A stretch of 64,000 nt of DNA from Candidatus Latescibacterota bacterium (GTDB lineage Bacteria > Latescibacterota > UBA2968), in contig OZ240241.1 of the NCBI GenBank assembly GCA_965198115.1, positions 4,576,001 to 4,640,000 of the forward strand, read 5' to 3'. The notes under the pieces are model-generated. The model was not told the origin of the DNA. It saw only the letters and a list, made by a program, of their open reading frames with translations, and ran no database searches. This document shows positions 5,217 to 39,419 of the stretch, in pieces. Position 1 is the first letter of the stretch. Every line of letters begins with the position of its first letter. A program made the position numbers and the translations under genes.

Positions 5217-5735
5217 GACCGGTCCTCCAACGTCGGAACCACAGGAAAGGTTAGACTATGACGTCTCATCCGTCTCCGGATCACATCATGCAAATCGGAT
5301 TGGGGTTTTGGGGGTCGAAGACCCTCCTCAGCGCCGTTGAAATGGAACTGTTCACAGTGCTCGGAGAAGGGGCCGAAGATCTCGAGAGCGTTCAGAATCG
5401 CCTCGGCTTGCATCCGCGAGCCTCGCGTGATTTCCTCGACGCCCTCGTCTCCTTGGGCTTTCTCCAGCGCGTGGATGGCAAGTACGGGAACACCCTGGAG
5501 ACGGATATTTTCTTGAATAAACGGAAGCCTTCCTACATCGGTGGAATGCTCGAGATGGCTAACCATCGACTATACCGATTCTGGGGCGGCCTCTCCGATG
5601 CGCTGCGGACGGGAGAGTTGCAAAACGAGGCAAAGGGTGGGGGCGAGTCGTTCTTCGCAACGCTGTATGCAGACCCTGCGCGACTCAAGGAATTCCTCGC
5701 TGCAATGACGGGAATCAGCCACGGTGCCAACCTGG

Positions 5736-6500
5736 TGTGACGCCTTGCGATAATTCTCCGCCCGGCTTAAGCTATTCGCAGAATAGGCAGAATCGTTTCA
5801 ATACGGTTAACAGTGGAGACCGTTCCCTAATGAGTTGAGGGTCACCTAAGATCTGGCGGCCATACGACATAGTGCCATAGGAGTACTTACAAGGCGCAAC
5901 GGCCAAAAGCGGTTGTCGGACCTACGCCTGATGTCCCTTTCTTTACGCGAACGCGTTTGGCACATTCCGGGGGATCGGGACGCGAAACGCTCTCGACCTC
6001 CGACGGGTCCGCCATCGGCAGCACCGCCAGGGAGACGGCCGATTTTCTACCCCGCTTCGCCATTTTCGGGAAGCACCTTCAAAGCCGCCTTGTCGACAGA
6101 CGCAAGCTCTTGTTTTTGAACTGGTTTAAGTGTTTCCGACACCTGAAAAACCCCCCTTTCGTCGACAACGGCCGCGATGCGCCAGTCCGGGACTGAAATT
6201 AGGACGGATTAGCAAAAGAAACGGGACATGACCGGTCTCCGGTCGGACGGCCACAGGTTTTCCGCACCCCCCTATGCCCGCTGGGACCTGGCCTGGCCAC
6301 GTCTTGAGCCTAATCGGTCGAAACGCGCTATTTTCGCGGTTCGAGAGCCTATTTCTCGGGCGTGTGGGAAAATGAAAAGGGCGCGGTCTACATCGGAACG
6401 CCCAGAGAGTTCATCCCCCTTATCTCCGGGTCGTCAGTTCTTGGTGCGTGAGAATGCGAATAGCGGTAATCTGGGCGGGAATCTATCGTAAGCCGTAACA
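5736..6500. mobile_element. Non-autonomous MITE-like element, copy 1 (765 bp), carrying phage cos-like sequences and a terS 5' fragment
   Basis: Ends TGTGACG...CGTAACA; ~45-bp imperfect TIR; 7-bp target duplication AACCTGG (5729-5735 and 6501-6507); second copy at 36930-37746; no transposase ORF. Confidence 0.9.
5887..6063 (-). pseudogene. 5' fragment resembling a P27/HK97-type phage terminase small subunit
   Basis: MAKRGRKSAVSLAVLPMADPSEVESVSRPDPPE resembles TerS N-termini (MxxRGRKSAxxLxV...RPxPP), then degenerates; assigned by motif recall, no search run. Confidence 0.55.
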
Positions 6501-7228
6501 AACCTGGCGATCGCAGAGAAGCTCTCCTGGGACGAATACAAGACCTTTGTCGATGTGGGAACAGCACAGGGCGATCTCGCGACACAGGTCGCCCTCGCCC
6601 ATCCCCATCTGACTGGCCAGGGCTTCGACTTGCCCGAAGTCGCCCCTGTTTTCGAAGCGTATGTCGAAGAAAACGGCCTCACGGGCAGACTGACGTTTTC
6701 AGGAGGGAGCTTCTTCGACGTCCCGCTGCCAGAAGCCGATGTCGTGATGATGGGCCACATCCTCCACGACTGGAACCTCGATCAGAAGAGAATGCTCATC
6801 CAGAAAGCCTACAACGCCCTACCAGAAGGGGGCGCGTTCATCGTCTACGAATCCATCATCGACGACGACCGATCCCAAAACACGTTCGGTCTGCTGATGA
6901 GTCTGAATATGCTGATCGAAACCGAGGGAGGGTTCGACTACACGGGTGCGGATTGTCAGGGCTGGATGGAAGAAGCGGGCTTCAAACAGTCACGCGTGGA
7001 ACACCTCGTCGGCCCGGACTCGATGGTGGTCGGCATCAAGTAGGACGACACTGGCAAAGAGCGTCGGAGAGGACCCGTGGATGATCTCACGGGATGACGC
7101 ATCCAAAAGTGGCCCCGGGACCACTTTTCAGACCAGCCAGGCGAGCGGGTCTTGGATTCCGGTCCCGATCGGTTATTATGGGACCTCCATCGGGGTCCTG
7201 TTTTTCGTGTCTGGAAAGGAATGTCGTC

Positions 7229-35744: not shown

Positions 35745-36929
35745 ATGTCCCTCGCTTCTCCCGAACCTTCCCCAGCCCAACTCCCAGCTACATCACCCCC
35801 AGTCACCACCAGAGCCCTGATCCTGGGCACCCTCTGTGTCATCTTCATGGCGTGGGGCGGGCACTGGACGCGCCACATCGGCCATACCACGAAGATGGCG
35901 CAGGACCACCTGCCGTGGGGCGTGGTCGTTCCCTTCTTCATCATTGCGGCGATCCTCAACAAAGTCATTCACAAGGTGCGACCGCAGTCGGTGCTCACGT
36001 CGACGGAGTTGCTCGTCATCTTCGGCATGGCCAACATCGGCTCGGCGTTGCCCAGCTATTTCATGGCGCACCTCATCTCCAACATTGCCGCGCCGTATTA
36101 CTATCCCACGCCCGAAAACGGCTGGGCTATCGATCTCCTCCCGAACATGGTCAAGTGGGCAGTCGTCACGGACCGACAGGCCGTGCGCTGGTTTTTCGAA
36201 GGCCTGCCGCTTGGTGCTTCGATTCCGTGGGGCGCGTGGGCGGTGCCTCTATTCTGGCGAATGTCCCTCGTGGCGAGCGTCGCCTGCTTCTGTTACTGCA
36301 CCGTCGCCATCCTCAGAAAACAGTGGGTCGAACACGAGCGGCTCGCCTTTCCGCTCATGGCCTTGCCCCTTCACACAACTCGACCGAAGGAGTCGGAGGA
36401 AGAAGGCTTTTGGACGATCGGATTCCTGAACCGCCCGCTCTTCTGGGTCGGCGCAGCGATCGGATCGTTCGCGATCCTGTGGAACATCATCGGCGGCTAC
36501 TTCGTTCCGCTGTTCCCGGAGATCCCGCGTGATGCGGGCGTCATCCAATTCGGCACGCACTTTCCTCCCGTTCAGACGCGGATCTATCCGCTCCTCATCG
36601 GCTCGGTCTACTTCATCGACCTCGACGTGTCGCTGACCATCTGGGTCTTCCGGCTCCTGATCACACTCGAGATGGGGTTCCTCAACCGACTCGGTGTCGA
36701 CCTCGGACCGACACACGGGGCTGGGAACACCTTGTTTGAAAACTGGAACGACCTGGGTGCCCTGTTCCTAATCATTCCCTGGAGCCTGTGGATGGCTCGT
36801 GAACATTTGGGGGCCGTCTTCAGAAAAGCGATCCACGGCGACACGCGCGTCGACGACAGCCGGGAACTGCTGCCTTACAGAGGTGCCTTCTTCGGCTGGG
36901 TCGGCAGCGCCCTGTTCATCATTGCGTGG
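35745..36929 (+). pseudogene. Multi-TM membrane protein (DUF6785-like), truncated by MITE copy 2
   Basis: TELLVIF, IPWGAWAVPL, ILRKQWVEHERLAFPL; ORF runs into the element and the C-terminal part was not found downstream. Confidence 0.75.
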
Positions 36930-37746
36930 TGTGACGCCTTGCGATAATTCTCCGCCCAGCTTAAGCTATTCGCAGAATAGGCAGAATCGTTTCAATACGG
37001 TTAACAGTGGAGACCGTTCCCTAATTGAGTTGAGGGTCGCCTAAGATCTGGCGGCCATGCGACATAGTGCCATAGGAGTACTTACAAGGCGCAACTGCCA
37101 AAAGCGGTTGTCGGACCTACGCCTGATGTCCCTTTCGCGAACGCGTTTGGCACATTCCGGGGGATCGGGACGCGAAACGCTCTCGACCTCCGACGGGTCC
37201 ACGATTGGCAACACCGCCAGGGAGACGGCCGATTTTCTACCCCGCTTCGCCATTTTCAGGCCATTCCGTCGAACCCAAGTTGTCGACTAGCCCAAGTTCT
37301 TGATTTTGAACGCGTTTAAGCGAAAAAGGCACCGAAAAACCCCCTCCTCGTCGACAACGGCCGCCGGAACGCGACCGGACTTGAAATTAGGACGGATTAG
37401 CAAAAGAAACGGTCCACTACAGGTGTCCAAAAGAGAGCTGACCGTTTCCACCCCCCCTACCCCCCTGGTGCGGGCCTCGGGCCAGCGACGCGCCCAGGGC
37501 CAACACCGCGCAACCCCCCTATGCCCACTGGGACCTGGCCTGGCCACGTCTTGAGCCCAATCGGTCGAAACGCGCTATTTTCGCGGTTCGAGAGCCTATT
37601 TCTCGCGCGTGTGGGAAAATGAAAAGGGCGCGGTCTACATCGGAACGCCCAGAGAGTTCATCCTCCCTTATCTCCGGTCGTCAGTTCTTGGTGCGTGAGA
37701 ATGCGAATAGCGTAATCTGGGCGGGAATCTATCGTAAGCCGTAACA
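36930..37746. mobile_element. Non-autonomous MITE-like element, copy 2 (817 bp), with cos-like cargo
   Basis: Same TGTGACG...CGTAACA ends and near-identical arms as 5736-6500; diverged centre; only GTGG (4 bp) is repeated at the flanks. Confidence 0.9.
37041..37253 (-). pseudogene. 5' fragment resembling a phage terminase small subunit
   Basis: MAKRGRKSAVSLAVLPIVDPSEVESVSRPDPPE; the tail differs from copy 1 because of a small indel. Confidence 0.55.
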
Positions 37747-38915: not shown

Positions 38916-39419
38916 GAACGCCGGCGAACCTACCAGGGGCCGAGCGTCGTCGGGCGTGGCAATCGACGCGGATTGCAATCTTGTCTGAGGCTGGCCGGGA
39001 CCAGATGTGCCGGATCGGGGAATCCTACTCGCTGGGGCGCTGGACGCTCACGGCCGGGCAGTCTGGCCGACGCGGTCTTGAACGATCTGGCCTCGGGCGT
39101 GCTGCCCGGCGGATCGACGGTTCCACCAATTTAATTATATAATTTGTTGATAAATAAGCTTCTCGATCCCGACCCAGGGCCAGCACATTTTCTGTTTACA
39201 CAGGAAAGGCGTTCCCCTCATTTTTATCGCCATTCTTGAACGGAATGAACGGGACCAGGCAGTCCGCTTATTCATAGTCCTACTAGATTCCAAGATGTTT
39301 AATAATGTGTTTAACTGTCTGTTTGTAAATTACTTGTGGTATATTGGCATCCCTGTGAAGTCTTGTATATTCCAGGACTGAAAGGGTGATCAGTGGTGTG
39401 ATCATAAGAGGGTGACCAA

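Follow-up and report, generated by a model that had tools for sequence, protein, structure and literature searches.

Bacterial MITEs are non-coding, multi-copy elements that are bounded by terminal inverted repeats (TIRs), leave a target duplication of fixed length and are mobilised in trans. Mini-Mu and mini-Tn constructs that carry lambda cos are laboratory tools, and to our knowledge they have not been described as natural elements. The phage-inducible chromosomal island (PICI) EcCICFT073 carries two cos sites without being a phage and employs the terminase of its helper, and its cloned cos sites alone made a plasmid transferable, according to PMC6739421. PICIs, in the accounts drawn on here, integrate site-specifically, replicate, and have proteins (Rpp) and lambda-type cos sites. 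The pseudo-pac and pseudo-cos sites of generalized transduction are chromosomal homologs of packaging sites; as PMC6687093 puts it, cos phages are assumed not to be generalized transducers, since it is rare for two cos homologs to lie within a headful, and cos terminases need a second cos to finish packaging. Transposable phages can have TA-type ends, and the target duplication is 5 bp in Mu and 6 bp in B3 (PMC8705779). HK97 has a 10-nt overhang, and its TerS, the N-terminal arm of which contacts DNA, binds at 15-29 nt downstream from the cut (PMC11331095).

The element described here, found in a window of 64,000 nucleotides (the whole stretch of DNA analysed), shares features with each of these. 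It is as non-coding, TIR-bounded and multi-copy as a MITE and leaves a duplication of fixed length, but its presumed partner is a phage transposase and not an IS, and its interior appears to be foreign packaging DNA and not a deleted transposase gene. Like EcCICFT073 as described, it has two cos modules on non-phage DNA, here putative packaging sites identified by homology. Where PICIs bring their own genes, it has no intact gene, occupies many sites and carries cos modules of the HK97/PAJU2 type; integrase, att site, and regulatory and replication genes are absent from it, and helper-type packaging sites are present by homology. It resembles Mu/B3-like phages and mini-Mu in its ends, which are of the TG...CA type and homologous to the end of a Mu-like prophage, in its insertion at scattered sites with short duplications, and in having unpaired flanks and a pair of copies that looks like a cointegrate; it differs from them in being gene-free and only 765 bp long, in its 7-bp duplication and in bearing cos sites of unrelated, non-transposable phages. 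The order of G-run, ACCG, cohesive end of about 10 nt, motif 11 nt downstream and then terS is that of HK97 (PMC11331095) and the Pseudomonas phage PAJU2 (AP009624). The element departs from these by its tandem modules and the absence of HNH and terL; in addition, its terS ends after 32 codons, and the distance from cut to ATG is stretched by a GTCGAC/IHF block. Finally, whereas pseudo-pac and pseudo-cos sites are chance or fixed sites in the account cited, the element is mobile and multiplies cos-like sites, twice placing two in the same direction within 50 kb. We found no description of a MITE or mini-transposon with cos sites in the open-access literature searched, nor, in the same literature, of Mu-like ends combined with tandem, allele-shuffled cos sites. 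The anatomy is well supported and unusual, and by sequence the element would be a MITE of a kind that we have not found described, with transposable-phage ends around a tandem, allele-shuffled cos cassette. Coordinates are collected in Table 1.

Table 1. Features of the two element copies and their surroundings, in window positions.
Feature	Position	Strand	Details
Element copy 1, short allele, 765 bp	5736..6500	.	BLAST copies and empty site
Left 7-bp target duplication of copy 1	5729..5735	+	
Right 7-bp target duplication of copy 1	6501..6507	+	
O-methyltransferase 5' half, interrupted by copy 1	5258..5735	+	PF08100
O-methyltransferase 3' half, interrupted by copy 1	6508..7043	+	PF00891
Left terminal inverted repeat	5736..5781	+	20/27 in register with tail-side end of G108 Mu-like prophage
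Right terminal inverted repeat	6455..6500	-	19/27 with the same G108 prophage end
terS 5' stub, 32 codons, PHROG-12559-type	5968..6063	-	ATG at 6063; frame continues to stop 5887-5889
Inverted GTCGAC repeats around IHF-like box	6090..6168	.	Repeats 6090-6097 and 6159-6168; box 6103-6115 (minus)
Putative cos module B	6202..6275	-	G-run, ACCG, cohesive-end segment, CTAATCC motif
Predicted cohesive-end 9-mer of module B	6224..6232	-	Predicted cut 6224|6223
Probable cos module A	6351..6424	-	G-run, GACCG, predicted cohesive end near 6375-6384, downstream arm
Element copy 2, long allele, 817 bp	36930..37746	.	
Stub ATG of copy 2	37253		
cos-B 9-mer of copy 2	37412-37420		Differs from copy 1
Extra ~60-bp G-run-flanked block of copy 2	near 37460-37517		
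DUF6785 gene cut off by copy 2	35745..36929	+	372 of 498 profile positions
Fragment with 96% identity to the sequence immediately downstream of the host's Mu-like transposase gene	38919..39130	+	~1.2 kb from copy 2

An earlier note on this DNA had described a 765-bp element with TGT...ACA ends and an imperfect TIR of about 45 bp that splits a methyltransferase with a clean 7-bp duplication, and this description held. The duplication is exact, the two O-methyltransferase halves lie in frame on either side of copy 1, and the empty site is preserved in a 12.3-kb contig from a separate study, whose joint 5728->6501 skips 772 nt, which equals 765 + 7. The second copy reported in that note also truncates a gene as claimed, though no clean 7-bp duplication is found there. 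The statement that the element is present twice had to be revised: a BLAST search of the whole host genome (8.43 Mb, one contig) returned 17 contiguous full copies of 751-823 bp and one further copy interrupted by two IS, about 18 in total. Incomplete sequences were recovered as well, namely one right half, a left fragment of 138 bp, an isolated left end and, without TIRs, two interior blocks. Exact 7-bp duplications flank 11 of the 17 full copies, and 6 of 7 bp match at one more; two have a common outer duplication around a 9.8-kb segment, and three, copy 2 among them, have unmatched flanks. The interrupted copy also bears a 7-bp duplication. The insertion sites are many and unrelated, and 13 duplications share a symmetric preference, with G/C favoured at positions 2 and 6 and A/T favoured centrally. 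Together, the duplications, the copies and the empty site uphold the claim of a mobile non-coding element, and the genome-wide dispersal of the copies that of cos-like sites spread round the chromosome. The element holds no intact gene, and neither a sigma-70-like promoter nor a terminator was found in it; six-frame comparison gave no transposase similarity in any frame, in agreement with what had been noted. With TIRs, a duplication of fixed length, dispersed copies and no transposase, the element formally fits the MITE definition. Its reading as a structured RNA was not supported (z -1.75), and an Rfam search of the element gave a single match at chance level (E 4.3).

TGT...ACA ends and short duplications occur in IS families of the IS21, IS481 and IS1202 type, and the earlier note had suggested IS21-like transposition and a search for an autonomous partner that shares the TIR. 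The element could be an ordinary MITE or an internally deleted IS whose phage-like features are coincidental; istB and rve genes of IS21 are abundant in the host genome, and direct searches with the stub and the element in PHROGs, phage records and a protein collection came back empty. Yet none of these IS21 genes is associated with the TIR of the element: a TIR profile run against the host genome recovered only the element's own ends and no other element or IS. The CGATA motif occurs once per element end, and the several internal end repeats of IS21 are absent. Kinship with the IS21 family was not supported, there being no istA/istB element with these ends in the host genome and no internal repeats of the end motif. 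Six-frame translations of the element also showed no similarity to other ORFs of the host genome, the ends match a prophage end, and the terS and cos B profile tests described below lie well beyond their controls. We regard the deleted-IS reading as very improbable and essentially refuted.

The ends point instead to a Mu-like transposable phage type. The two TIRs are 73% complementary in the copies measured, and both resemble the tail-side end of a Mu-like prophage in G108, a genome of the same class that served as the single comparator for the ends and in which the tail-side end is fixed by the divergence of two prophage copies. Only three of 377,973 27-mers examined from G108 reach 20/27, and two of these are the tail-side prophage end; the apparent early-side end has TGT-N9-CGATAATT in common with the element. 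The prophage encodes a repressor, DUF3102, a transposase, transposition protein B, terminase, portal and protease. It is found at all four contig ends of G108 (C1:1-33336, the end of C1, the start of C2 and the end of C2), its head and tail genes being transcribed divergently from the early operon, and it has one TGT end and one TAT end. No pair of its flanks matches, which would have given its duplication length, and the 7-bp duplication of the element departs from the 5 or 6 bp of Mu and B3.

A related transposase adjoins the element in the host. A DUF3102 gene and a DDE transposase sit between the two copies that have a common outer duplication, beginning 99 bp from the left end of one of them, and the pair is 39% identical to that of the G108 prophage. 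The DDE transposase matches phage transposase families and retains the invariant D154, D240 and E276, and it is C-terminally short (460 aa, compared with 523-550 in closer full-length homologs). Homologs occur in 8 of 168 genomes of the phylum, the host included; viral searches with the transposase yielded 0 and 1 distant locus. Five transposases with 51-60% identity are encoded on contigs of 6-12 kb. The host genome contains no Mu structural genes and no convincing MuB, and the helper is therefore absent or decayed there. Further candidates for related ends were set aside: an end-motif match in G079 falls inside a gene; end-pattern matches in 41 other genomes of the phylum were chance-like in the 30 loci examined, G108 excepted; and TIR pattern scans gave 3 metagenome and 109 genome matches, of which all 83 examined (80 of the 109 genome matches) lacked similarity to the element. 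The composite bounded by two element copies also contains, on the minus strand at C1:1427405-1430614, a single-chain protein of 1069 aa with Rpb2-3, Rpb2-6 and Rpb1-2 RNA polymerase domains that is not a normal rpoB or rpoC.

Turning to the interior, both cos-like blocks, the inverted GTCGAC repeats, the IHF-like box and the terS-like ATG were found where they had been reported. The terS-like peptide and the interior had also been expected to match phage sequences, which direct searches did not bear out and profile searches did. Searches with the stub or the element in PHROGs, phage records (blastn and tblastn) and plasmids were empty or at chance level, and among 21 candidates from a direct search against longer proteins none scored. 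Viral terS genes were retrieved with a back-translated pattern and a 58-aa ORF, and these begin with the same peptide as the stub. A terminase large subunit follows in five of six distinct viral contigs retrieved, and the five proteins that were scanned all fall into PHROG 12559, a terminase small-subunit family. From 80 further loci, which gave 67 distinct proteins, we removed five that start with the seed motif and built an N-terminal model of 62 viral TerS. The stub scores 35.9 bits against this model, a score reached by none of 3000 shuffles, and its two window copies rank first and second among 2478 start-codon peptides of the window; there is some circularity in this test, because the TerS family was found via the stub itself. 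The first 32 codons are intact in 14 of the 17 copies and frameshifted in three. The stub spans the N-terminal arm of TerS, and the rest of the protein is missing.

Upstream of the stub, module B has the layout of an HK97-type cos. The order of G-run, ACCG, variable segment and [ACT]TAA[AT]C motif recurs in 28 of 36 distinct full regions upstream of viral terS of the PHROG-12559 type. Among 39 viral contigs that start no more than 170 nt from terS, 19 begin exactly 11 nt before the conserved motif, while seven lack the motif and 13 start elsewhere. Judged from these sequences, the shared start is what a physical genome end leaves once its 3' overhang is lost, and it places the predicted cut of module B. 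PAJU2, whose terS belongs to the PHROG 12559 family, is consistent with this: its record (AP009624) is opened at the same junction, with a 10-nt segment and 11 nt before the motif. When the 8.4 Mb of the host were scanned with a model built from the 28 viral regions, the 11 best matches were ten element copies and one TIR-less block (E 0.0023-2.8), the first unrelated match following at E 3.2 and the other copies falling below threshold. The predicted distance from cut to ATG is 161 nt in the element, as against mostly about 40-70 nt in the viral contigs. The sole viral match to the cos-B 17-mer was dismissed, as it lacks the cos layout. As a side result, the clustering of viral contig starts at one base upstream of terS offers a cheap way to map cos cuts in PHROG-12559 phages.

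The evidence for module A comes from homology to a resident prophage and is weaker. Near C1:662-668 kb the host carries HNH, terS, terL and portal-like genes, and block A agrees with the cos-upstream arm of this prophage at 17 of 18 bases; it also has 12 bases in common with the PAJU2 end junction. A second cos model was built from nine regions chosen by layout and A/T content among 54 loci of relatives of the resident TerL. Its 21 matches in the host (best E 0.014) comprise 16 block A sequences, which as element copies are not independent, the resident prophage cos, one TIR-less block and three unrelated sites. A direct pattern scan for block A gave eight matches, all due to chance. Module A is probably, though not certainly, a second cos-like module resembling the cos of the resident prophage, whose cohesive-end segment matches none of the element's alleles exactly. 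Between the HNH gene and the cos of this prophage we also noted, by eye, a HicAB-like pair (C1:663087-663657). Taken together, the stub model and the viral cos models indicate that the interior of the element is derived from phage cos and terS, as the earlier note had proposed. Ten of the 17 copies, which make up the long allele, have an additional GC-rich block of about 60 bp between two G-runs, which is possibly a third packaging-related module.

All 17 full copies retain modules A and B in the same direction, together with the IHF-like box at 0-1 mismatch, a match reached by 68 of 3000 random windows. The pattern of GTCGAC repeats was found only at loci of the host genome among 317 examined. 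The most variable segment of the element is the cos-B 9-mer, where the pairwise distance is 0.33 (left arm, 0.009; stub, 0.03), and its three allele classes occur in 6, 6 and 5 of the 17 copies. Copies 1 and 2 of the window are near-identical in module A. The copies are mosaic: of 1891 site pairs compared across 16 distinct copies, 880 are incompatible, and the incompatibility is spread over the whole element. Hybrid formation from cos to cos was not supported as its cause. Recombination across the cut (0.52) does not exceed that of the left half (also 0.52), and the right half has 0.38. Assembly polishing could contribute to the mosaicism; alternative alleles are present as separate contigs in run X1.

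Parts of the cargo also exist outside the element. In two TIR-less blocks (C1:8396846-8397023 and C1:8402803-8403437), module B and the IHF block occur together with upstream sequence of the blocks' own; one block has a cos allele in common with the element, and in the other the stub is present too. Inside a tmRNA-integrated, PICI-like island (C1:5976093-5982540) there is a divergent right half. A satellite-like donor of the cargo is likely because of these blocks and this right half. The TIR-less blocks are set among mobile-element remnants (ParA, ParE, HNH and resolvase), and one of them has an 82-aa ORF between IHF block and terS stub, flanked by a 10-bp direct repeat. The tmRNA island encodes a P4-like integrase, a sigma54-interaction-like protein, an AlpA-like ORF (read by eye) and an HGGxSTG TerS-like protein.

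Such a donor fits a reading in which Mu-like ends captured a stretch of cos, IHF site and truncated terS from a satellite or phage remnant and have since spread it by transposition only, the cohesive-end alleles being due to gene conversion with incoming cos-bearing elements and not to selection on the transposon. The TIR-less modules and the half-copy in the island speak for it, the cohesive ends of phages vary naturally, the mosaicism extends over the whole element, the stub is broken in some copies, and the same sequences are explained without selection. Against this, the interior combines two cos modules of different phage types in one direction with no intact gene, every full copy has kept both, and multi-base alleles persist exactly at the predicted cohesive end. 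We consider passive carriage of this kind plausible, though less likely than not.

In the reading that we prefer, and to which we give about an even chance, the element would be a double parasite without genes: a Mu-like helper would amplify it, and HK97-type cos phages would package it. A helper of the MuA/B type would first amplify the element, leaving target duplications, unpaired flanks and one cointegrate-like pair; we propose this because of the ends, the adjoining transposase, the unpaired flanks and the cointegrate-like pair. The terminase of a cos phage, together with HNH, would then cut module A or B and package towards terS and the left end, as homology suggests. The cut would leave the right end of the element behind and a second cos would be needed, so that transfer of the whole element would require a circular replicon or two copies in the same direction within a headful. 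Plasmids, satellites or phages bearing the element, being circular replicons, could become natural cosmids. The several cohesive-end alleles, shuffled between copies, may in turn widen the range of usable helpers. Only two pairs of copies lie in the same direction within 50 kb, one at 10.6 kb and one at 31.2 kb, the latter being the pair in the window. The need of cos terminases for a second cos also makes simple lateral transduction from one copy doubtful.

The same constraint bears on a defensive reading, in which about 36 chromosomal cos-like sites would titrate incoming terminase or let it cut the chromosome, so that the burst is lowered and the host tolerates the copies. Many dispersed copies with two cos types and several alleles would fit broad interference, most copies are without a partner within a headful and their packaging would be abortive (judging from the account in PMC6687093), and the stub corresponds to the arm that contacts DNA in HK97 TerS (PMC11331095). 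Set against these points, the copies disrupt host genes in an IS-rich genome, as a selfish element would, about 18 copies would be few beside the concatemers of a replicating phage, and the stub lacks the rest of TerS and a recognisable sigma-70-like promoter and is broken in three of 17 copies. A role as decoy seems to us improbable.

If the double-parasite reading is true, a transposon that multiplies cos would lift the headful limit on transduction by cos phages, and any replicon receiving it would become a natural cosmid. As a phage parasite it would be far smaller than PICIs, with no protein of its own and two unrelated helpers, and such elements are invisible to satellite finders that are based on genes. 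With somewhat less confidence than an even chance, we suggest a new class of minimal, gene-free phage satellite made of cis signals only. Transposable phages would copy it, and unrelated cos phages would package it by way of a recombining cos cassette with several alleles, making plasmids, islands and the chromosomal segments between copies transducible by phages thought incapable of generalized transduction.

The element is present in none of 60 relatives, and 167 other genomes of the phylum gave no convincing match to the cos region or the end motif. Partial element sequence was found in 23 runs of 11 studies among the matches listed, four runs being examined as contigs; half of the element's words occur in only three runs, all from one study. 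Near-identical pieces in runs without near-identical flanks were not taken as horizontal transfer, because a multi-copy element assembles at low host depth, and no habitat was inferred from them. In run X5, contig 25 carries a 733-bp variant of the whole element in which the segment corresponding to window 6063-6234, that is the IHF block and the cos-B end, is swapped for 75 other bases, and in this variant the spacing from cut to ATG is phage-like.
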